From NCBI GenBank assembly GCA_035358815.1, contig DAOPQC010000009.1:2405-66404 (forward strand): a stretch of DNA of 64,000 nt. Direction: 5' to 3'. Positions 3,569 through 57,343 of this stretch are shown piece after piece; positions within the stretch are counted from its first letter, which is position 1, and each line of letters opens with the position of its first letter. Made by a program: the position numbers and the translations under genes. The notes under the pieces were generated by a model that saw nothing but the letters and a program-made list of their open reading frames with translations, ran no database searches and was not told the origin of the DNA. This stretch comes from Thermoanaerobaculales bacterium (GTDB taxonomy: Bacteria > Acidobacteriota > Thermoanaerobaculia > Thermoanaerobaculales > Sulfomarinibacteraceae).

Positions 3569-6307
3569 ATGTCCGAGCGTCTCACCCTGGACGGCAGGGA
3601 GGTTCCTTTCCGACCGGGACAGACGGTCCTGGAGGTAGCCCGGGAGAACCACGTCAGGATCCCAGCGCTGTGCTACCACCGCAAGACCGGTCCCGCGGGT
3701 CGGTGCCGGGTCTGCGTGGTCGAGGTCGAGGGCCAGCGCGGCCTGGCCACCTCCTGCAACCTTGCCGCCAGGGCGGGGATGGTCGTCCACACCGCCTCCG
3801 AGCGTGTCCTCGAGGTGCGGCGTATGGTCGTCAACCTGCTGCTCTCGAGCGGCGAGCACAACTGCCTCGCCTGCGAGCAGAACGGCCACTGCGAGCTCCA
3901 GGACGCGGCGTACCAGCTCGGCATCGAGACGCCGGCCTTCGTCCTGTCGGGGCCCAAGGCCGAGGTGGACGACTCGAGCGAGATGATCGTCTTCGACCAC
4001 CGCAAGTGCATCCAGTGCGGCCGCTGCATCGCCGCCTGCAACCACGTGGTGGTGAACGAGGTTCTGGGCATGGCCGAGCGGGGCTTCGAGGCCAGGGTCG
4101 TGTGCGACCTCGACCAGCCGATGTCCCGGTCGACCTGCGTCCAGTGCGGCGAGTGCGTTCAGCTCTGCCCGGTGGGCGCGATCATCGACAAGAAGGCCGT
4201 CGGACGGGGCCGCGCCTGGGAGCTCGAGCAGGTCAACACCACCTGCCCCTACTGCGGGGTCGGCTGCCAGGTCACCCTGCACGTGGACCGCGGCGCGAAC
4301 CGGATCGTCCGGGTCACCGGCCGGGAGGTCCCGCCGAACGACGGCATGCTGTGCGTGAAGGGGCGCTTCGGGTACGAGTTTCCGTCGAGCCCCAAGCGGC
4401 TCACCCAGCCGATGGTCCGCAAGAACGGGAAGCTCGAGCCGGTGTCTTGGGACGAGGCGCTCGACTACACGGCGCAGCGGATCGGCGACATCGTCGCCAA
4501 GCACGGGCCCGACGTCTTCTCGGCCTTCGGGTCGGGGCGCATCACCAACGAGAACAACTACGCGATCGCGAAGTTCACGAGGGCGGTCATCAAGACCAAC
4601 AACGTCGATCACTGCGCTCGAACGTGACACGCCCCCACTGTCGCCGGTCTGGCGACAAGCTTCGGCTCGGGCGCGATGACCAACAGCATCCAGGAGCTCC
4701 AGGACGCTGACCTGATCTTCGTGATCGGCTCCAACATGACCGAGGCCCACCCGGTCATCTCGTACTACGTCAAGCGGGCCGTCAACAAGGGGGCGACCCT
4801 GATCGTGAACGATCCGCGGCGGACCGACCTCTGCCGGTGGGCAGCCCACCATGTCCAGATCAAGGTCGGCTCGGACATCGCGTACATCAACGGCCTGATC
4901 AACGAGATCTTCAAGAACGGGTGGGCGAACGAGGACTTCATCAGGGAGCACACCGAGAACCCGGACGAGATGCGCGCCTGGGCCGAGTCGTACCCCGTGG
5001 AGCGCGCCAGCGAGATCTGCGGCGTGCCGGTGGCCAGGATGAAGGAGATCGCCCGGCTGCTCGGCACGGCCAAGTCGGTGAGCGTCTGCTACACCCTGGG
5101 CATCACCGAGCACATCTGCGGCACCGACAACGTGAAGACGCTCGCCAACCTGCAGATGGTCCTGGGCAACCTCGGCAAGCACGGCGCCGGGCTGAACCCG
5201 CTGCGTGGGCAGAACAACGTCCAGGGAGCCTGCGACATGGGCGCCCTGCCCAACGTGTTCCACAACTACCAGCCGGTCACCGACGCCAAGGCGATCGAGA
5301 AGATGGAGAAGGACTGGGGCGTCACCGGCCTGTCGAGGACCGCCGGCTACAAGATGCCCACCATGCTCCACAAGGCGCTCGACGGCGGCACCAGGGTGCT
5401 CTACTGCGTTGCGGACAACACGGTCCAGACCGAGCCGCACATGGCGCACACGATCAAGGAGCTGCAGGCGCTGGAGCTCCTGGTGGTCACCGACATCTTC
5501 CCGAACCTGACCACCGCCCTGGCGCACGTGGTCTTTCCGGACTACAGCTGGGGCGAGGAGGAGGGCACGTTCTCGAACACCGAGCGGCGCGTGCAGCGCG
5601 TGCGCCGGGCCCTCACCCCGCCCGAGGGCTGCCGGCCGAACTGGTGGATCCTCCAGGAGCTCGGCAAGCGGCTGGGCTACGACCTCGGGTTTACGTCGGC
5701 GCGGGCGATCTGGGAGGACATGCGCCGGACCGCGACCAGCTACGCCGGCATCACTCACGAGCGCATCGAGGACGTGGGCCTGCAGTGGCCGTGCCCGACG
5801 CTCGAGCACCCCGGGACGGCGTTCCTGCACAAGGACGGCAAGTTCTCCCGCGGCAAAGGGCTGTTCTGCAAGACCGACTGGATCCCACCGGCCGAGGTCG
5901 TGGACGAGGAGTACCCGCTGGTGCTGTCGACCGGCCGCCGGCTCTGGCACTACCACTCCGGCACGCAGACCCGGAACTCGGTCGGGCTCGAGAACCTCTT
6001 CCCCGAGGAGCTCCTGGAGATGCACCCGACCGATGCCTCTCCGCTCGGGATCGCGAGCGGCGATCTGGTCAAGGCGGTGAGCCGCCGCGGCGAGGTCACG
6101 CTGCGCGCCTGGGTCAACGAGCGCGCGGCGCCCGGCCTGTGCTGGATGGCCTTCCACTTCGAAGAGGCGTGCGCCAACGTGCTCACCATCGATGCGTTCG
6201 ATCCGGTCACCGAGACGGCCGAGTACAAGGTGTGCGCGATCCGGGTCGAGAAGGTCCGGGACGGCGAGGCCCCGATGGAGGACCTCCGACGCCAGGCCCG
6301 GCCCTGA
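3569..6307 (+). CDS. fdhA: Formate dehydrogenase catalytic (alpha) subunit, selenocysteine-containing, NuoG-like N-terminus (912 aa with UGA=Sec at 4625-4627)
   Basis: ORFs 3569..4627 and 4676..6307 share one frame (both start = 2 mod 3). The peptide across the TGA reads [28 protein letters not shown], the conserved Sec/Cys active-site context of FdhF/FdnG. N-terminal 2Fe-2S (CYHRK..CRVC) and 4Fe-4S motifs (CIQCGRCIAAC, CVQCGECVQLCP, CPYCGVGC) are present. RBS is gaaaggagg, 8 nt upstream of the ATG. Confidence 0.9.
4625..4656 (+). promoter_or_regulatory. UGA(Sec) codon plus bacterial SECIS-like hairpin
   Basis: TGA at 4625-4627. A perfect 6-bp stem, gtcgcc (4640-4645) / ggcgac (4651-4656), starts 12 nt downstream. 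Its apical loop GGUCU is the same loop sequence as in the E. coli fdhF SECIS. Confidence 0.75.
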
Positions 6308-29069: not shown

Positions 29070-29278
29070 TCGCCCGCACCCGCGTCCGCGCCCGCTTCCG
29101 CGCCCCCGCCGTTGGGATGTCTCTCGTTCCCGTTCCCGTCCCCGTTCCCGTACCCGATGGCCGTTCGGGGTGGATTGAGTTCGTACGTGAAATTTGGAGA
29201 TTGCTGCGACGTCTGGGCGGCGTGCGGCGATCCGGGAACGGGATCGGGGTGGGGCCCTGGACCCTGACCCCGATCCCC
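29070..29278. repeat. Mosaic intergenic repeat locus A (beta C-array, 34-nt alpha module, unique core, G-arm, 11-bp hairpin)
   Basis: CCCGCN-type array at 29070-29110. Alpha module cgttcccgttcccgtccccgttcccgtacccgat at 29125-29158. Inverted partner atccgggaacgggatcggggtgggg at 29230-29254. Perfect hairpin gggatcggggt (29240-29250) / accccgatccc (29267-29277). Confidence 0.85.
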
Positions 29279-34500: not shown

Positions 34501-34627
34501 TCGAGGCCTCCTTGACGGTCACTCTACCAGCCCGGATCCGGGCTCACAAGCTCTTGAGAGCTGGTCTCGGCGGGGCGGTGTGGAATCGACGCGCGATGTG
34601 CCCGATGTCACTGGAGGAGAGGATATA

Positions 34628-34768
34628 GGGGATAGGGAATAGGGGATAGGGGAGAGGGGAGAGGGGAGAGGGAACAGGGGATAGGGGAGAGGGAGTAGGG
34701 GAGAGGGCCTAGCTGCCTTGTGGGGTAGCCATCCTGGCTGCCTTGTGGGGTAGCCATCCTGGCTGCCC
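34628..34768. repeat. Mosaic intergenic repeat locus C (12 G-tracts in GGGGA(T/G)A heptamer array + 25-nt tandem repeat)
   Basis: 34628-34707 holds 12 runs of G3-4 separated by 3-4 nt. 34713-34762 is ctgccttgtggggtagccatcctgg x2 (period 25) plus a partial third unit. Confidence 0.9.
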
Positions 34769-36063: not shown

Positions 36064-36125
36064 GGCTCCATGATACCGAGCCGAATGAGGTGCGGAGCGC
36101 CCGTTGTCGATTCTGACCTTCTCTC

Positions 36126-36278
36126 GGGAACGGGAACGGGGACGGGAACGACAGCTGGCCGTTGTGGGGTCGCCATCCTGGCTGCCTTGTGGGGTAGCCA
36201 TCCTGGCTGCCCGGAAGCGGGCGCGGGCGAGGGGGCGGGCGGGGGCCCTACCCCCTATTCCCTACATCCCATCCCCTC
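36126..36278. repeat. Mosaic intergenic repeat locus D (alpha G-array, 25-nt tandem, beta G-array, inverted gamma array)
   Basis: gggaacgggaacggggacgggaac at 36126-36149. 36153-36212 is ~95% identical to 34711-34768. ggaagcgggcgcgggcgagggggcgggcggggg at 36213-36245. C-rich ccctaccccctattccctacatcccatcccctc at 36246-36278. Confidence 0.9.
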
Positions 36279-49786: not shown

Positions 49787-49924
49787 CGTTCCCGTTCCCG
49801 TGCCCGCTCCCGTACCCGATGGCGGATTCCTGCCCACTATTGCGCGGAGCCGTGGGAGCCAAGCCGGTTTCACCTCCGTCCTCTTCTGCAATCGGGAACG
49901 GGGACGGGAACGGGAGCGGGAACG
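49787..49924. repeat. Mosaic intergenic repeat locus F (34-nt alpha module, 70-nt core, inverted 34-nt alpha module)
   Basis: cgttcccgttcccgtgcccgctcccgtacccgat at 49787-49820 is 32/34 identical to 29125-29158. atcgggaacggggacgggaacgggagcgggaacg at 49891-49924. The arms are ~85% complementary. Confidence 0.9.
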
Positions 49925-51973: not shown

Positions 51974-52410
51974 GGGGATAGCGATGAGGGGATAGGGGCT
52001 AGGGCCCCTGCCCGCCCGCTGCCGGCTGCACGGACGGCTTCGTTCCCGTTCCCGTTCCCGTGCCCGCGCCGATCCGCCTCCGCGCGCGACGTCGTTCCCG
52101 TTCCCGTTCCCGTTCCCGAACCCGCGCCCGCTTCCGCGCCCGGTTCCGAGCGACGTTTCGCTCCCCTTCCCGTTCCCGTCCCCGTTCCCGATCCCGTGTC
52201 CGCTCCCGCTCGTTCGCTCCGTCCTCGAGAGCGCTTCGCGCCGATTCTCTGGAAGCGCTCCCCGAGGGTGCCACCTTTGGCGATTTCGGGTCCTGAGCAA
52301 TTTGTCAGGAGCATCGTCGTCCCGAAATCGCCAAAGATGGCACGCCCGCGGGAGGCGCTTCCCTCGCTCTCTCCTCGTCCCCGGGGAGCGGAAGCGGGTG
52401 CGGGCGCAGC
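51974..52410. repeat. Mosaic intergenic repeat locus G (gamma G-array, three C-rich hexamer arrays, 113-nt imperfect palindrome, beta G-array)
   Basis: Gamma array at 51974-52004. C-arrays at 52041-52070, 52093-52147 and 52164-52212. Palindrome at 52251-52363 with 23-nt arms (52268-52290 / 52321-52343, 1 mismatch) and apical hairpin tcctga/tcagga. gagcggaagcgggtgcgggcgc at ~52385-52410. Confidence 0.9.
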
Positions 52411-52879: not shown

Positions 52880-54432
52880 CAGCCGCGCTGCTGCTGGGCG
52901 CGGCGCAGCAGGCGCTCGAGCTCGCGCTTGCCGGCCAGCTCCTTGTACATCTGCTTGGCGCGCGGGTTGTCGGGATCCGCGGCGAGAGCCTTCTCGAGCG
53001 CCTTGCGCTCGCGCTCCTGGTTGCGGCGGCGGCGCCAGAACAGCGCCAGCTCGAGCCACGCCTCGACGTGCTCGGGGTCGACCTCGATGGCGCGGCGCAT
53101 CGCCGCCAGGGCGCGATTGGTCCACAGCGGGTTGCGGAGCAGGAGCTGGGCCAGCTTCACCAGCTCTGTGGGTCGGGGGTCGAGCTTGCAGGCGTGCTCG
53201 AGGAGCTGGATCGCGAGGTAGAACTCGCCCTCGCGGACCAGCTCGTCGGCCCGCTTGAGGTTGGCCTCGACGACGGCGCTGCGCGCGCCGACGTCGGCGG
53301 CGGCTCGCTGGGCCGGCTCGGCGAGCCGCTCGCGCTCCTTCTGCACCTCCTGGAGGATCTTGTCGTAGCGCTCACGGCTTCGCCAGTCGGACAGCACCTG
53401 GTGCGCCTCCGTGGCGCGCTCGCAGATCGCCTCCAGCTCGGCGCCGAGGTCCTTGAGGTGTCGCTCCGAAACACGGGCCGGCGAGTACCGCTCCTTGATC
53501 CGCTGCAGGGCCCGATTCACCTCGTCGCGGTCGGCGCCGGGCCGGAGCCCGAGCGCTCCGTAGTGGTCGACGCGCCGGCCTTCCTCGGCAAGCCGCCGGA
53601 TGCTCTGCCGTTCCTGGCGCTGGATCTCGGCGAGCGTCTCCTCCTTCACCGACGGGGTCGCGGCCGGCTGCTCGCCCGGTGCCTGCGGCCGCGCCGGGGC
53701 GGCACGCCGGGTCGCGTCACCGACCGAGACCACGCCGGCCGCGATCAGGGGGTAGAGGGTGGCGATCGCCTGCTCGTCGGGCAGCGCCGAGACCTGGAAC
53801 AGGTCCGAGATCGTCCGCGTGCCCTCGAGGCGGCTCAGCAGGAAGCCCTCGGTCGGGGTGAGGTTGAAGTCCTGCAGCAGGAGGTCGAACTCGCGGGAGC
53901 GCCACACCGTGCGTTCGAGGGAGCCGAGCGCCGCGAGCTTCGCTCGATGGTCGTCGCAGGCGCGGGCCGCGATCAGGATGATCTGCGCGGTGAACAGGTC
54001 GGGCAGGGTGTCAGGCTGTCCCGAGCCCTCCTCGGCGACGTACTCGTAGAACAGGGCCGGCTCCGCCGCCGCTCTCCGGATGATCGCCAGCGTCAGCTCC
54101 TGGAGCTCGCGCTGCAGCACCGCCGCTTCGAGGCTGCCGCGCGCCACCAGGAGATGGCCGAGTGGCGGGGCCTCCTCCCCGCCCTGCGAGAGCAGCGACA
54201 GGGCGCGGTCGTCCTCGCTGATGATGCCGCGGTCCACAAGCCACATCCCGAGCTTTTCGTCCTCGATGCTCGAGCGGGCCGCCCGGATCTCTCCCTTGAC
54301 GAACATGATCTCGCGCCGCGTCCGACTGGTGGCGACGGCGAGGATTCCGGTTGCGGCCTCTCTGGCCAGCCGCGCGAGGTGGTCCGGCAGCGCCGTGCTC
54401 AGCTCGAGCCGCACCACGGAGTCGCCGCTCAT
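52879..54432 (-). CDS. DUF4388-like N-domain / J-domain (DnaJ-like) / TPR protein
   Basis: ATG 54432. N-terminal GILAV....REIMFVKGEIRAA (DUF4388/PATAN-like). The J-domain-like helix pair DHYGALGLRPGADRDEVNRALQRIKERYSP lacks a canonical HPD (has YSP). C-terminal TPR helices. Confidence 0.65.
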   Translation of the reverse strand: MSGDSVVRLELSTALPDHLARLAREAATGILAVATSRTRREIMFVKGEIRAARSSIEDEKLGMWLVDRGIISEDDRALSLLSQGGEEAPPLGHLLVARGSLEAAVLQRELQELTLAIIRRAAAEPALFYEYVAEEGSGQPDTLPDLFTAQIILIAARACDDHRAKLAALGSLERTVWRSREFDLLLQDFNLTPTEGFLLSRLEGTRTISDLFQVSALPDEQAIATLYPLIAAGVVSVGDATRRAAPARPQAPGEQPAATPSVKEETLAEIQRQERQSIRRLAEEGRRVDHYGALGLRPGADRDEVNRALQRIKERYSPARVSERHLKDLGAELEAICERATEAHQVLSDWRSRERYDKILQEVQKERERLAEPAQRAAADVGARSAVVEANLKRADELVREGEFYLAIQLLEHACKLDPRPTELVKLAQLLLRNPLWTNRALAAMRRAIEVDPEHVEAWLELALFWRRRRNQERERKALEKALAADPDNPRAKQMYKELAGKRELERLLRRAQQQRG

Positions 54433-54437
54433 CGCCG

Positions 54438-55580
54438 TCAACCCCCTCCGCTGCCCGCCGCCGCGTCCTCGGTGGGCGACAGCTCGACGGGATGGGGCGT
54501 GAAGCCCTCGAGCATCAGGTGCGCGGGGACGCTGGCGACCGCGCGAGCAGCGGCCTCGCGGCTCGGGAAGTGCCCCCAGATCAGCCGCCAGCACGGGCTG
54601 CCCTCGGCCCCCTCGCTGGCCACTGGTCGCAGGACGTCGGGGTACTGTCGCGCCTTGTTGAGGACGCGCTGCAGCTCTTGCGGCTCGCAGCCCATGTCGA
54701 CCACCAGGCCCCAGTCGCCGGCTGTCGAGGGCGCCTGGGCGGCGCGGTTGGAGCGCAGCCACAGCGCGGTCGCCCCGATGACGATCGCGAGCACCGCTGC
54801 CAGGGCGGCGAGCAGGGCCCAAGCCGGGACGCGCCGGCGCCGGCGCTCCGGGGCGGAAGGAAGCGGCTCCCGCTCCTGCTTCCGCACCGGCTCCGGCACC
54901 GCAGGCTCGGCCGGCGACGCCACCGGGGCCGGCTCGAGCATGCCGGCGGCAACCAGGGCCGCGAGCAGGCTGACAACCTCGCCCTGCCCCTGGGGTGAGC
55001 GACCGGCGATCTCGGCGGCGGTGCGCTGGCCGTTGACCTTGGCAACGATCAGGTCCGCCTCCTCCGACAGCCGAAGCGGCGAGTACAGCTCGAGGAAGTC
55101 GGCGGCCCGGCGCAGCCGGATGTCGAGGTCGGGGAGGATTGCCCGCGTCAGCTGCGGGTCCTGGCTCGACAGCACCAGCTCCACGACCGCGTGGGCGGCA
55201 GAGATGGTCGGCGCATCGGTGCCGGCGACCTCCGAGTCGCTGATCTCGAGCCGGTGCTCGGGGTCGAGCAGCCACGCCGCGAGGGCCTCCTGGACGAGCT
55301 CCTTGACGGTCCCGATCGCGACGGTCTGTGACAGGCCCGGGGCGGCGGCGAGCGCAAGGGCTTCCGCGACGAGGTCGGGGCGTCCAACCGGGCGGCAGCC
55401 GAGGCGGCGGGCAAGCAGGGCCGGGTCCGGTCCCTCGACCGACACGATCTTGCCGCGGGCCAGGCGCAGCACGAGCTCGCCGGTCGAGCCGGAGAGCCGG
55501 ACCTCGCCGGCAGGCCGTCGGGCGAGCCATCGCCCGAGGCGCCAGATCAGCTCGGGATCCCGCATGTCGGACTCCATCAT
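54438..55580 (-). CDS. DUF4388-like N-domain membrane protein with C-terminal SPOR-like domain
   Basis: N-terminal GEVRLSGSTGELVLRLARGKIVSV. Single TM helix (WALLAALAAVLAIVIGATALW). C-terminal beta-alpha-beta block WGLVVDMGCEPQELQRVLNKA...WRLIWGHFPSREAAARA. Confidence 0.5.
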   Translation of the reverse strand: MMESDMRDPELIWRLGRWLARRPAGEVRLSGSTGELVLRLARGKIVSVEGPDPALLARRLGCRPVGRPDLVAEALALAAAPGLSQTVAIGTVKELVQEALAAWLLDPEHRLEISDSEVAGTDAPTISAAHAVVELVLSSQDPQLTRAILPDLDIRLRRAADFLELYSPLRLSEEADLIVAKVNGQRTAAEIAGRSPQGQGEVVSLLAALVAAGMLEPAPVASPAEPAVPEPVRKQEREPLPSAPERRRRRVPAWALLAALAAVLAIVIGATALWLRSNRAAQAPSTAGDWGLVVDMGCEPQELQRVLNKARQYPDVLRPVASEGAEGSPCWRLIWGHFPSREAAARAVASVPAHLMLEGFTPHPVELSPTEDAAAGSGGG

Positions 55581-55631
55581 AAACGGTCTAACGGGCAGGA
55601 GGTATTGCCGGCCTCGTGGCCGGGCGCCTCC

Positions 55632-55660
55632 TTGACAGTCTCGGCAAAGCTTTCTACCAT
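55632..55660 (+). promoter_or_regulatory. Candidate sigma-70 promoter for the tRNA-Val/tRNA-Asp pair
   Basis: TTGACA (55632-37), a 17-nt spacer, then TACCAT (55655-60), ~25 nt upstream of tRNA-Val. Confidence 0.5.
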
Positions 55661-55684: not shown

Positions 55685-55759
55685 GGGAGGTTAGCTCAGG
55701 GGTAGAGCACCTGCCTTACACGCAGGGAGTCGTGGGTTCAAATCCCCCACCTCCCACCA
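55685..55759 (+). tRNA. tRNA-Val (anticodon TAC)
   Basis: Cloverleaf: acceptor gggaggt/acctccc, D-arm gctcaggggtagagc, anticodon stem cctgc/gcagg with loop ctTACac, T-arm gtggg-ttcaaat-cccac region, encoded CCA. Confidence 0.9.
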
Positions 55760-55780
55760 CCCCTGAGACGGCACGATTGC

Positions 55781-55857
55781 GGGGTCGTAGTTCAGCTGGT
55801 TAGAACGCCGGCCTGTCACGCCGGAGGTCGAGGGTTCGAGTCCCTTCGGCCCCGCCA
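55781..55857 (+). tRNA. tRNA-Asp (anticodon GTC)
   Basis: Acceptor ggggtcg/cggcccc, D-arm gttcagctggttagaac, anticodon stem ccggc/gccgg with loop ctGTCac, T-arm gaggg-ttcgagt-ccctt, discriminator G, encoded CCA. Confidence 0.9.
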
Positions 55858-55872
55858 ACCCAGCCAAACCGA

Positions 55873-55900
55873 GCCGCCCTTCGGGCGGCTTTTCGTTTGT
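55873..55900 (+). terminator. Rho-independent terminator after tRNA-Asp
   Basis: gccgccc-ttc(g)-gggcggc followed by ttttcgtttgt. Confidence 0.75.
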
Positions 55901-56006
55901 CTGGTGGCGGGGCCGAAGGGACTCGGTCACCGCGGAGCCAGCGGGCGGACGTACGCCGCCCACCGCCCTCTCCGGCCCGGCTGACGCCGGGCCTGCGACC
56001 CCCACG
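55886..56006. repeat. 121-nt direct repeat, copy 1 (contains inverted copy of tRNA-Asp 3' end)
   Basis: Base-for-base identical to 56234-56354 (checked by eye over all 121 nt). 55905-55925, tggcggggccgaagggactcg, is the reverse complement of tRNA-Asp 55837-55857. Confidence 0.95.
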
Positions 56007-56078
56007 GCTACGTCCGCACTCCGCTGCCTATCGCGGTGTGCAAGTCCCTTCCCTCGTGACCCCGGCGACCCTGGCGGG

Positions 56079-56130
56079 CGGCTGTTTTCGTTCCGTGGCG
56101 GGGCCTTCGGGACTCGCAGCACCGTCACCT
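56079..56130. repeat. Degenerate middle copy of the tRNA-Asp-derived repeat
   Basis: cggctgttttcgttccgtggcggggccttcgggactcg matches the start of the 121-nt unit, with gaag replaced by ttcg and a different continuation. Confidence 0.7.
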
Positions 56131-56233
56131 GCGCGCTGTCACGGGCAGCCCGCGTTGCGGCCTGCCGGTTCCAGCCTGCGCAGCTGCCGGCGGTGTCGAG
56201 CCCTTCCCTCGTGACCCCGGCGACCCTGGCGGT

Positions 56234-56354
56234 CGGCTTTTCGTTTGTCTGGTGGCGGGGCCGAAGGGACTCGGTCACCGCGGAGCCAGCGGGCGGACGT
56301 ACGCCGCCCACCGCCCTCTCCGGCCCGGCTGACGCCGGGCCTGCGACCCCCACG
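56234..56354. repeat. 121-nt direct repeat, copy 2
   Basis: Identical to 55886-56006 at an offset of 348 nt. Preceded by the 32-nt block 56201-56232, identical to 56046-56077. Confidence 0.95.
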
Positions 56355-56579
56355 CCCTCTGAAACTGCGAATGTGTCCATGTCGGCCCCGGCACGCAATT
56401 GGCGCGAAGGCCCCAGCGATCCACAGGGTCAAGAATCACCGGGTGCGCGAACGCGGCGCAGACCTCCGCCCAAGCCTCCGCACGCACGATCGGGGTCCTC
56501 CTCAACTGTCCGTTCACGGTGTGAGGTCGAGATACCTGAGAATCTCACACTTCAGCCAGACACTCCTTCTGGGGGTGCC

Positions 56580-56939
56580 TCAGGGCTCGCGGCGGAGGCC
56601 GAGCTGGATCGAGATCGCGCGGTCGAGGGCTTCGAGCTCGCCGGCTTCGAGGAGGCCAAGGCGCTTGCTGATGCGGTGCCGGGCAACCGTGCGAAGCTGG
56701 TTGGCGACCGCACGGGAGGGCTTGGCGAGGCCGCTCGACGTCGGGCCGACGCGGCTTTCGTAGGGTCGGAGGGGGCGGTCGGGCAGCGATGTCACGGGCA
56801 CGATCTGGAGCACCGCGTCGAGCCGGCAGGCGACGTCGTTCGAGACGACGACCGCCGGGCGGGTCTTCCGGATCTCTCGACCCTCTGCCGGGTCGAAGCG
56901 GACCAGGACGACGTCGCCTCGGCGGAGCTCGGGGGTCAC
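56580..56939 (-). CDS. mazF: Type II toxin, PemK/MazF-family endoribonuclease
   Basis: RGDVVLVRFDPAEGREIRKTRPAVVVS... and the QIVPVTS pattern. The GTG start overlaps the antitoxin stop (GTGA). Confidence 0.8.
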   Translation of the reverse strand: MTPELRRGDVVLVRFDPAEGREIRKTRPAVVVSNDVACRLDAVLQIVPVTSLPDRPLRPYESRVGPTSSGLAKPSRAVANQLRTVARHRISKRLGLLEAGELEALDRAISIQLGLRREP

Positions 56940-57178
56940 TCGTCGACCTCCGCGTCAGCCGCTTCCCACTCGGCGGCCAGCTCTGCCGCTTCGTCCCGGT
57001 CCTCGGTGTACGCCACCTCGAGCTGTCGCTCGAGCAGCCGGGCGCGGTACTCGCGGACCGCCTCGCACACGACGGCACTGGTGTTCGGGACCTCGTACAA
57101 GAACGTCGCCACATCAGGGTCGACCGTCACGGTGATGCGCTTCTTGCCCACTGCCGGATCCTCCGGTGAGATGATCAT
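56936..57178 (-). CDS. Putative MazE-like/RHH antitoxin
   Basis: 80-aa acidic-tailed protein (KKRITVTVDPDVATFLYE... then a DE-rich C-terminus) translationally coupled to mazF. Start ATG 57178 is uncertain. Confidence 0.6.
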   Translation of the reverse strand: MIISPEDPAVGKKRITVTVDPDVATFLYEVPNTSAVVCEAVREYRARLLERQLEVAYTEDRDEAAELAAEWEAADAEVDE

Positions 57179-57343
57179 AGCATACGAAATGTCATATGAA
57201 CAATACGCACACTGCGATTCCAGCGACGCCATCTGTCCGCCGGCGGGATCGAATGTGAATCGTGGCTGAGGTTCGGCCGGACGGTGGAATGGTCCGAGGC
57301 CGGTACAATGGCCGGGTTTCGAGCCCGTCGTATCGGAGAGGAC

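Follow-up and report, generated by a model that had tools for sequence, protein, structure and literature searches.

We have analyzed a family of short non-coding elements that lie downstream of tRNA genes in Acidobacteriota, as represented in a 64,000-nucleotide (nt) stretch of a Thermoanaerobaculales genome (GenBank assembly GCA_035358815.1, contig DAOPQC010000009.1; this whole stretch is called the window below). A preliminary description of this DNA had singled out a 98-nt unit on the minus strand, just behind a tRNA-Val/tRNA-Asp operon, as a possible mimic of a tRNA. The unit is the inner part of a rod-shaped element of about 165 nt, here named U1, and not a free-standing tRNA mimic. U1 and a second family, U2, have a conserved fold with a bias towards one strand, are linked strictly to tRNA genes and carry ends that match the local tRNA; near-identical cores occur beside different tRNAs, and the copy number in arrays varies. 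With modest confidence we read U1, together with U2, as a small non-autonomous recombining element that targets tRNA 3' ends; its tRNA-like ends would be copied from the target, and its structure would be selected on one strand, either as RNA or as single-stranded DNA. The ingredients are known singly (attachment-site, or att, duplications at tRNA genes, palindromic repeats, hairpin recombination sites), while their combination is to our knowledge undescribed, and we found no published description of such elements in the literature.

The fold of U1 and U2 and its strand bias

Two families were resolved by BLAST and iterated nhmmer searches between the tRNA-end copies, U1 with a length of about 145-170 nt and U2 with about 110-135 nt. 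In the window U2 sits between two copies of U1, and nhmmer found no further U1 or U2 over the rest of the 64 kb. The coordinates of these and the surrounding features are collected in Table 1.

Table 1. Features of the tRNA-Asp locus, in window coordinates.
Feature	Position	Strand	Details
tRNA-operon promoter	55632-55660		TTGACA-17-TACCAT, canonical; promoter scan
tRNA-Val (TAC)	55685-55759	+	first gene of the tRNA operon; ARAGORN, Rfam 67.9 bits
tRNA-Asp (GTC)	55781-55857	+	ARAGORN, Rfam
segment a	55837-55857		final 21 nt of tRNA-Asp, C56 of the T-loop to CCA; source of the copies in the elements
intrinsic terminator of the tRNA operon	55871-55901	+	GAGCCGCCC-TTC-GGGCGGCTT, then T-run; terminator scan
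inverted copy no. 1 of tRNA-Asp 3' end	55905-55925	-	21/21; 3' terminus of U1
98-nt unit	55905-56002	-	3' two-thirds of U1: motif GTGGGGGTCGCAG (55993-56005), tip hairpin (55974-55993), motif GGAGAGGGCGGTGG (55960-55973), 3' strands of P3, P2, P1
U1, complete, single rod	55905-56064	-	nhmmer E = 2e-35; rod (168 nt) -109.2 kcal/mol, z = -5.15
decayed direct copy of tRNA-Asp 3' end	56038-56064	+	GTGCAAGTCCCTTC + CCTCGT + GACCCCGG; U1 5' arm read on the other strand; repeat search
decayed copy of the terminator module, between U1 and U2	56065-56094	+	...GGCGGGCGGCTGTTTTCGTTCC; 41-nt repeat shared with 56201-56241
U2	56096-56219	-	nhmmer E = 8e-22; 3' terminus 56096-56116, CTTCG flipped to CGAAG; 5' arm GGGGTCACGAGGGAAGGGCTCG (56197-56218)
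terminator-like hairpin + T-run	56221-56245	+	copy of the tRNA terminator module
U1, second copy, 5'-truncated	56253-56357	-	part of the 348-nt duplication missing in L005 and L009
decayed direct copy of tRNA acceptor 3' strand	56382-56393	+	TCGGCCCCGGCA, just past the last unit; repeat search
mazE/mazF toxin-antitoxin pair adjoining the array	56580-57178	-	Pfam PemK_toxin 9e-23; gene calls

The structure of U1 was obtained from an alignment of 12 units with RNAalifold and pair counting, and was compared with 500 shuffles. At the base of the rod both arms are tRNA-derived: CGGGGTC (56058-56064) pairs with GGCCCCG and GAAGGGACTTG (56041-56051) with CGAGTCCCTTC, with a 6-nt bulge. Above the base stand helices P1 (56032-56040 with 55926-55934; CACCGCG with CGCGGTG), P2 (56021-56027 with 55938-55944; CAGCGG with CCGCTG) and the long-range P3 (56006-56017 with 55945-57; GCGGACGT with ACGTCCGC, plus GCC with GGC). 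The G-rich GTGGGGGTCGCAG lies opposite CCGGAGAGGGCGGTGG in a conserved internal loop, and the tip is an 8-bp hairpin that had already been recognized in the preliminary description. The 43 pairs of this model are paired in 87.7% of cases and 18 of them are changed on both sides, which was reached in none of the 500 shuffles (0/500); compensatory pairs make up 6 of 8 in P3 and 5 of 8 in the tip hairpin. U2 likewise folds into a rod, with 30 pairs (95.9% paired), 15 of them compensatory, and again 0/500 shuffles reached this value.

The 98-nt unit itself is present exactly as had been described: read from 56002 to 55905, the minus strand begins GGGGTCGCAG, and the full span reads GGGGTCGCAGGCCCGGCGTCAGCCGGGCC...CGAGTCCCTTCGGCCCCGCCA. 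Its last 21 nt (CGAGTCCCTTCGGCCCCGCCA) are, as claimed, an exact inverted copy (100%, 21/21) of tRNA-Asp positions 55837-55857, placed directly past the T-run of the terminator. The repeat that contains the unit exists as well, although it measures 125 nt rather than 121: its copies at 55882-56006 and 56230-56354 are 99% identical and are spaced 348 nt apart, not head-to-tail. Both interior segments (the 8-bp hairpin and GGGCGG-CGTACGT-CCGCCC) are found exactly twice in the window. The proposed boundaries are too narrow, as the conserved unit reaches about 65 nt further in the 5' direction and closes into one long rod. This also changes the second of the two hairpins that had been proposed, one of 6 bp with a 7-nt loop; the segment is there, but its 3' half pairs with GCGGACGT about 90 nt upstream, where 6 of 8 pairs are compensatory.

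According to the preliminary description the 98 nt would form a minus-strand RNA in which a tRNA-Asp-like acceptor stem (GGGGTCG with CGGCCCC, then GCCA) encloses two replacement hairpins, the whole being a mimic of an acceptor stem. We consider this model very improbable. The 98-nt piece folded alone does adopt this structure (-63.1 kcal/mol), 86.6% of cells over the 12 units allow the acceptor pairing, and the truncated copy at 56253-56357 has no 5' arm to compete with it. However, the z-score of the piece is only -2.1, compared to -5.15 for the rod; the 6-bp hairpin is outcompeted by P3, and the acceptor- and T-like helices are without a compensatory pair, with 0 of 7 acceptor pairs changed on both sides in the 12 units. 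Moreover, the 5' strand of this stem belongs to the internal motif GGGGGTCGCAG, which is identical in cores beside tRNA-Pro, -Leu and -Met; because it stays the same beside other tRNAs, its likeness to the 5' end of tRNA-Asp does not make it a partner of the local acceptor strand. In L011 and L043 (here and below, such labels denote individual contigs or loci) it reads GGGGACG or GGGACGG, which introduces a mismatch. The first 10 nt of the unit do show the 9/10 identity to the tRNA-Asp 5' end that had been noted, but taken alone this match is weak: the window contains 16 occurrences of the 10-mer at up to one mismatch, any one 100-nt stretch would include a hit with a probability of about 0.01, and the motif does not vary with the neighbouring tRNA.

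The earlier statement that the unit is not a functional tRNA agrees with our searches. ARAGORN, which had been suggested as a check, and Rfam (at gathering and at permissive thresholds, E <= 10) called only tRNA-Val and tRNA-Asp and nothing on 55905-56357; neither ARAGORN nor the Rfam tRNA model RF00005 called a cloverleaf on the unit, and no tRNA-like fold was seen with either program. The preliminary description had itself named an inverted att-like fragment as a competing source of the similarity, and the data come close to that outcome: the termini are accounted for by such a fragment, and the local tRNA has no bearing on the 5' match. Several other local structures were considered and set aside. 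A hairpin 0 (GCGG..CCGT) and the local 6-bp hairpin are both displaced by the long-range P3; a T-stem-like pairing of GAGGG with CCCTT displays no covariation, and its motif stays constant in species with the TCTCGT variant of the tRNA; an encoded CCACCA tag is not kept in other species.

The conserved structure is on the minus strand, which is the strand that had been proposed, and all the measures applied favour it. The consensus fold of the modelled strand has an energy of -44.1 versus -26.8 for the other strand in U1, and -35.3 versus -20.7 in U2. In single-sequence folding, 32 of 33 units form their more stable structure on the minus-sense strand. G-U and A-C oppositions in the helices number 29:3 in U1 and 31:4 in U2, an asymmetry that is partly inflated by the prediction of structures on the G-rich strand; one G-U pair is kept in 16 of 18 U2 units. 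Part of the strand bias is what a G-rich strand would show anyway, and we regard it as good but not conclusive evidence that selection acts on a single strand, whether RNA or single-stranded DNA. The idea that the structured strand is exposed as the lagging-strand template found no support, as the GC skew suggests that it is the leading-strand template.

Copies at the tRNA-Asp locus and beside other tRNA genes

The 21-mer of the tRNA-Asp end occurs four times in the window with up to three mismatches, against 0.01 occurrences expected. In addition to the inverted copy that ends U1 there is a second exact one at 56253-56273 (21/21) and a third, degenerate one at 56096-56116, with CGAAG in place of CTTCG. 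Decayed remnants of direct repeats are found at 56038-56064, 56194-56220 and 56382-56393. The middle of the tRNA-end copy is reverse-complemented in many other copies as well (L015, L097, L109, L106), as CTTCG to CGAAG for Asp and CTCCG to CGGAG for Pro; the flipped variant places a symmetric purine bubble at the base of the rod, and the same variant is seen on U1 and U2.

Ten near-identical contigs of the same species were reached via MazF. Two of these (L005, L009) lack exactly one 348-nt period of the array. Three others (L006, L007, L010) terminate within the repeats, from which we conclude that the array breaks assemblies. In L002, L004 and L008 a 229-amino-acid "gene" has been called over the units and the tRNAs.

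Orthologous loci were collected through homologues of a 375-amino-acid protein encoded beyond the tRNAs, which gave 53 species-representative genomes, all of them from Acidobacteriota (labelled Thermoanaerobaculia, Thermoanaerobaculales, Ca. Sulfomarinibacteraceae or "Holophagae"). The tRNA-Val/tRNA-Asp pair keeps its place in these relatives. U1 and/or U2 are present downstream of tRNA-Asp in 28 of the 38 genomes that have the locus (Thermoanaerobaculia), always with the modelled strand opposite tRNA-Asp. Copies of the tRNA end were counted within 1.2 kb downstream of tRNA-Asp: inverted copies occur at 16 loci, at a constant distance just beyond the terminator, and direct copies at 10 loci, about 160 nt away. 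Arrays are found in L039 (4 x 205 nt), L051 (3 x 159) and L040 (3 x 164). Read in the sense of the tRNA, the tRNA 3' end is followed by a terminator, an inverted end, a core and a direct end, and the series from terminator to direct end then recurs; the terminator closest to the tRNA is intact and the inner ones are decayed. Genomes without a U element have only the tRNA and its terminator at this locus, with no inverted copy.

The copies follow the tRNA variant of their own species, with CCCTT or TCTCGT in the T-stem and GGCTCCG in L060. The intact copy is the direct one in some lineages and the inverted one in others. A reading of the tRNA-identical 3' end as a feature of an RNA mimic is not supported: in some lineages the intact copy stands on the other strand, and elsewhere it is the adjacent tRNA that is copied. 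Two further arrangements were seen in these comparisons. In L061 (2540-2690) the terminator and a 22-nt tRNA-Asp end are tandemly duplicated with no U1 or U2 core between them. A third non-coding module (...CGAGTC/GCCGTGAGCCCAGCCGGNGCANCCGGCGCNAGGCGAACGGCGTCCTGAGGAGCG..., the slash marking the junction) is present in L014 (5395-5630), L015 (2118-2414), L098 (~2760-2800), L110 (~1090-1130) and L103 (850-910); after the CGAGTC junction it stands where the tRNA end would be, or else it lies within U1 as an insertion, and it forms a 116-nt tandem repeat in L014.

A scan of metagenomes with a U1-core pattern of 21 specified bases gave 16 contigs. A U1 unit was confirmed by nhmmer in 15 of them; L095 holds the 23-nt pattern alone, at the contig end. 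Ten contigs have a called tRNA gene beside the unit, namely Asp or Asp-like (3), Leu-CAG (2), Met (2), Ala, Pro and Leu-CAA (1 each), and in four more the tRNA is represented by a 3'-end fragment or remnant, which in three cases lies at a contig end. The inverted end copy at the tRNA-Ala locus matches in 21 of 21 positions, as does the direct copy at the tRNA-Leu-CAA locus (L110), which lies around an insert of about 330 nt. At the tRNA-Pro locus the copies match in 18 of 21 positions in either orientation and their T-stem half is flipped (CTCCG to CGGAG), and the tRNA-Met locus has a partial copy; in both tRNA-Met contigs the core is reversed relative to the tRNA.

An identity block runs from the T-loop to the 3' end, as in integrative elements; for Asp, Ala and Leu-CAA it spans 21 nt (C56 through CCA), and for Pro 16-19 nt. 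Direct repeats of the block around an insert are clear in L110 (21/21), L106, L040 and the group-2 U2 loci, decayed in the window, and missing at several single-unit sites. The cores of the Pro-linked L106 and the Met-linked L104 are 96% identical, and the window copy shares 86% identity with the Pro-linked one, a value as high as that between Asp-linked copies of different species. Compared with miniature inverted-repeat transposable elements (MITEs), terminal inverted repeats do exist here but have the sequence of the local tRNA, and the elements are dispersed to at least six tRNA genes.

Among these contigs, L107 carries at a U1-bearing locus (92-168) a tRNA identical to tRNA-Asp except for its anticodon GAC, called as tRNA-Val, which is either a variant or a sequencing error. 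A C-rich insertion of about 70 nt (TTCCCCACGCCCGCCCCTCACAGACTCGCGG...CCGCGAGT) is found at GGGGGT^TCGCAG of the U1 internal loop in L015 (~2190-2260, Asp), L110 (Leu), L100 and L096.

A proposed recombining element weighed against other explanations

We interpret these units as a non-autonomous recombining element because the T-loop junction is constant, direct repeats lie around inserts, arrays are formed, cores are spread in either orientation, insertions are nested, and genes can be carried as cargo. Examples of the last are an AAA_14/DUF4143 ATPase that separates two sets of modules in L105 and possibly the mazEF pair adjoining the array, which may be cargo or a later insertion since it is missing at the orthologous locus L011. 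The remark in the preliminary description that the units might serve as recombination substrates fits the evidence best. The tRNA-like termini would derive from the target, like the att duplications produced by recombination in a tRNA T-loop. Spread among tRNA loci and growth of arrays could proceed through a recombinase encoded elsewhere, with the addition of unequal crossing-over, and recombination may take place, in a folded single strand, at the hairpin stem itself, which repeats the tRNA gene's 3' end. We infer recombination as the mechanism, as well as the enzyme and the kind of single strand, be it DNA or RNA.

Several observations weigh against a recombining element. Among the open reading frames (ORFs) and gene calls examined beside the copies there is no gene for a recombinase (tyrosine and serine types included), a transposase or a reverse transcriptase, and none for an integrase within about 10 kb of the array. 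Neither an excised form nor a clean pair of filled and empty sites within one species was found. The sole polymorphism is between the 125-nt direct repeats, for which homologous recombination or collapse of the assembly would be sufficient. Many single-unit sites (e.g. L063, L023, L059) have the inverted copy only and no direct repeat, which classical integration does not predict, and the copies at tRNA-Leu-CAG, and in part those at tRNA-Met, are without a clear tRNA-end copy. The inflation of the G-U counts belongs here too. Finally, a host RNA gene would account equally well for a one-strand structure that is strongly conserved throughout a class at a single syntenic locus.

Such an RNA gene is a serious alternative, although we think it rather unlikely. 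U1 and U2 would then be host genes for structured small RNAs, transcribed from the strand opposite tRNA-Asp; RNase P, RNase Z or the CCA-adding enzyme would process or protect them by way of the tRNA-derived terminal helix, which copies the acceptor/T-stem stack and GCCA, or else this helix would be a decoy for enzymes or toxins that act on tRNA 3' ends. The units are conserved well above the neutral expectation at a syntenic locus whose neighbouring protein is only 45-70% identical. Their strong covariation, their one-strand bias with the conserved G-U pair and their conserved, unpaired G-rich motifs are all expected of such an RNA, and the first 12 bp of the rod reproduce the 3' strands of acceptor stem and T-stem, with GCCA behind them. 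On the other hand, the minus strand yielded no promoter-like site, inter-unit terminators are all directed along the tRNA strand, and the upstream neighbour on the minus strand varies between species. The Sulfomarinibacteraceae group has its intact GCCA end on the other strand with the core in the same orientation, the core is flipped relative to the tRNA at tRNA-Met, and some copies have no tRNA-like end at all. No Rfam family matches: a search of Rfam 15 with the window and five other loci gave no relevant match to U1 or U2.

It is improbable, in our judgement, that the units are non-functional palindromic DNA, in which template switching at the terminator hairpin and unequal crossing-over repeatedly copied the tRNA 3' end with adjoining sequence and the apparent compensatory changes reflect self-correction of a palindrome rather than selection. 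The terminator at 55871-55901 does form the tip of a long imperfect palindrome made of the tRNA 3' end and its inverted copy, and the spacers flanking it are partly complementary. Short segments flipped in place (CTTCG to CGAAG, CTCCG to CGGAG) and the tandem terminator and tRNA end of L061, which has no U element, are also what such a process would leave behind. A comparable case is the Escherichia coli tyrT locus, where 178-bp distal repeats lie in tandem downstream of the tRNA-Tyr gene, each with its 3'-terminal ~19 nt. However, the asymmetric internal loops GGGGGTCGCAG and GGAGAGGGCGG would be lost through self-correction, whereas they are in fact kept from locus to locus and from species to species. 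The palindrome model also leaves unexplained the strand bias and the near-identical cores beside six different tRNA genes, and genomes without U elements have no inverted copy. While both the tyrT repeats and the U elements are tandem repeats with a tRNA 3' end, the tyrT copies are direct only, have no conserved hairpin core and are confined to a single locus.

Several other origins were rejected. Protein coding fails, as the long ORFs (e.g. 55691-56398, minus strand) cross the tRNA genes and the repeats, and the two scanned ORFs that overlap the array, at 53068-55635 (+) and 56193-57269 (+), have no Pfam hit. The units are not antitoxin-like RNA repeats of mazEF, since orthologous loci have units without mazEF, nor a leader or riboswitch of the downstream MFS/POT transporter, since the neighbouring gene varies between species. 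An origin from phages or plasmids was searched for with two core patterns, which produced 27 hits on viral contigs, 0 of them confirmed by nhmmer, and no match on plasmids.

Transfer RNA genes are classic landing sites of mobile DNA, and the known users are kilobase-sized and have their own integrase. Sublocation classes within tRNA genes were reportedly set out by Williams in 2002. The U elements resemble att duplications and cis-mobilisable arrays at the tRNA T-loop in their identity block from T-loop to CCA, in the direct repeats that flank the insert (L110, L106 and L040), in their arrays and in the re-supply of the terminator. They differ from them in that the inserts of 110-330 nt have no integrase gene, an inverted copy is a regular part of the insert, the hairpin core is structured on one strand, and one core family occurs at many tRNAs with matching ends.

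The U elements are also comparable to REP (repetitive extragenic palindromic) sequences, REPINs and MITEs, being non-coding imperfect hairpins of ~100-170 nt in intergenic 3' flanks, multi-copy, sometimes clustered, in either orientation and with conserved bulges. Unlike these, they lie beside tRNA genes in all cases seen, and their terminal repeats take the sequence of the local target instead of one specific to the element; a REP head of the GTAG type was not noticed. As to RNAs, the mascRNA, viral tRNA-like structures and YrlA share with the U elements a tRNA-identical acceptor/T-stem 3' strand and GCCA that can lie in a helix. The U elements differ from these in having no T-loop, D-arm or Rfam match, in that the partner is a continuous complementary strand, and in the use of the other strand in some lineages.

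The attC sites of integrons and the attP hairpin of phage CTX are recombination sites formed by a folded single strand. On analogy, the U elements may be compared with them as imperfect palindromes that keep a structure, not a sequence, on one strand, that repeat the duplex site in their stem, and that form arrays with occasional small genes such as toxin-antitoxin pairs. The order of parts would correspond as well: site, loop, inverted site, body, site on one side, and tRNA end, terminator, inverted end, core, direct end on the other. The target of the U elements is however a tRNA gene and most modules carry no gene, and we take the resemblance to be one of architecture only.

The family is thus distinguished by its length of 110-170 nt, its lack of coding capacity, its one-strand structure, its tie to tRNA 3' flanks and its ends, which take the sequence of the local tRNA. 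Tentatively, it may be a new class of miniature cassettes that home to the T-loop-to-CCA segment by way of a folded strand, re-tailor their stem to each tRNA, build arrays and sometimes carry small genes such as mazEF, or else a new class of structured RNA linked to tRNAs. If the elements are mobile, they would use an unrecognised route of recombination at tRNA genes, possibly via hairpin single strands, and would be a source of small cassette arrays able to carry toxin-antitoxin or ATPase genes. If they are RNA genes, they would define a structured RNA class tied to tRNA operons in a poorly studied phylum. In either case the units fragment metagenome assemblies and yield spurious ORF calls.

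Terminators of the locus and other repeats in the window

GC-rich hairpins followed by a T-run on the transcribed strand are found at 55871-55901 and at 56221-56245; both belong to the spacer modules and not to the 98-nt unit. Matches to miRNA-like hairpins of Rfam cover 55834-55928.

The window contains several other repeats. A 25-nt unit, CCTGGCTGCCTTGTGGGGTAGCCAT, is present in 2.4 copies, and in 2 copies about 1.4 kb away (34616-34767 and 36162-36211), beside an array of the heptamer ATAGGGG/GGAGAGGGG. Arrays of the hexamer CGTTCC or its near-complement CGGGAA lie at 29125-29156, 36125-36150, 49787-49924 and 52041-52239, with up to 19 copies (52093-52208), and a similar CGTTCC run is found near the tRNA locus of L014 (~5318-5340). 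Between 44239 and 44671 there are nested GC-rich tandem repeats of 12, 24, 42, 57 and 99 nt (of the GTCGGCGTGGCG type), which are probably a repetitive coding region.

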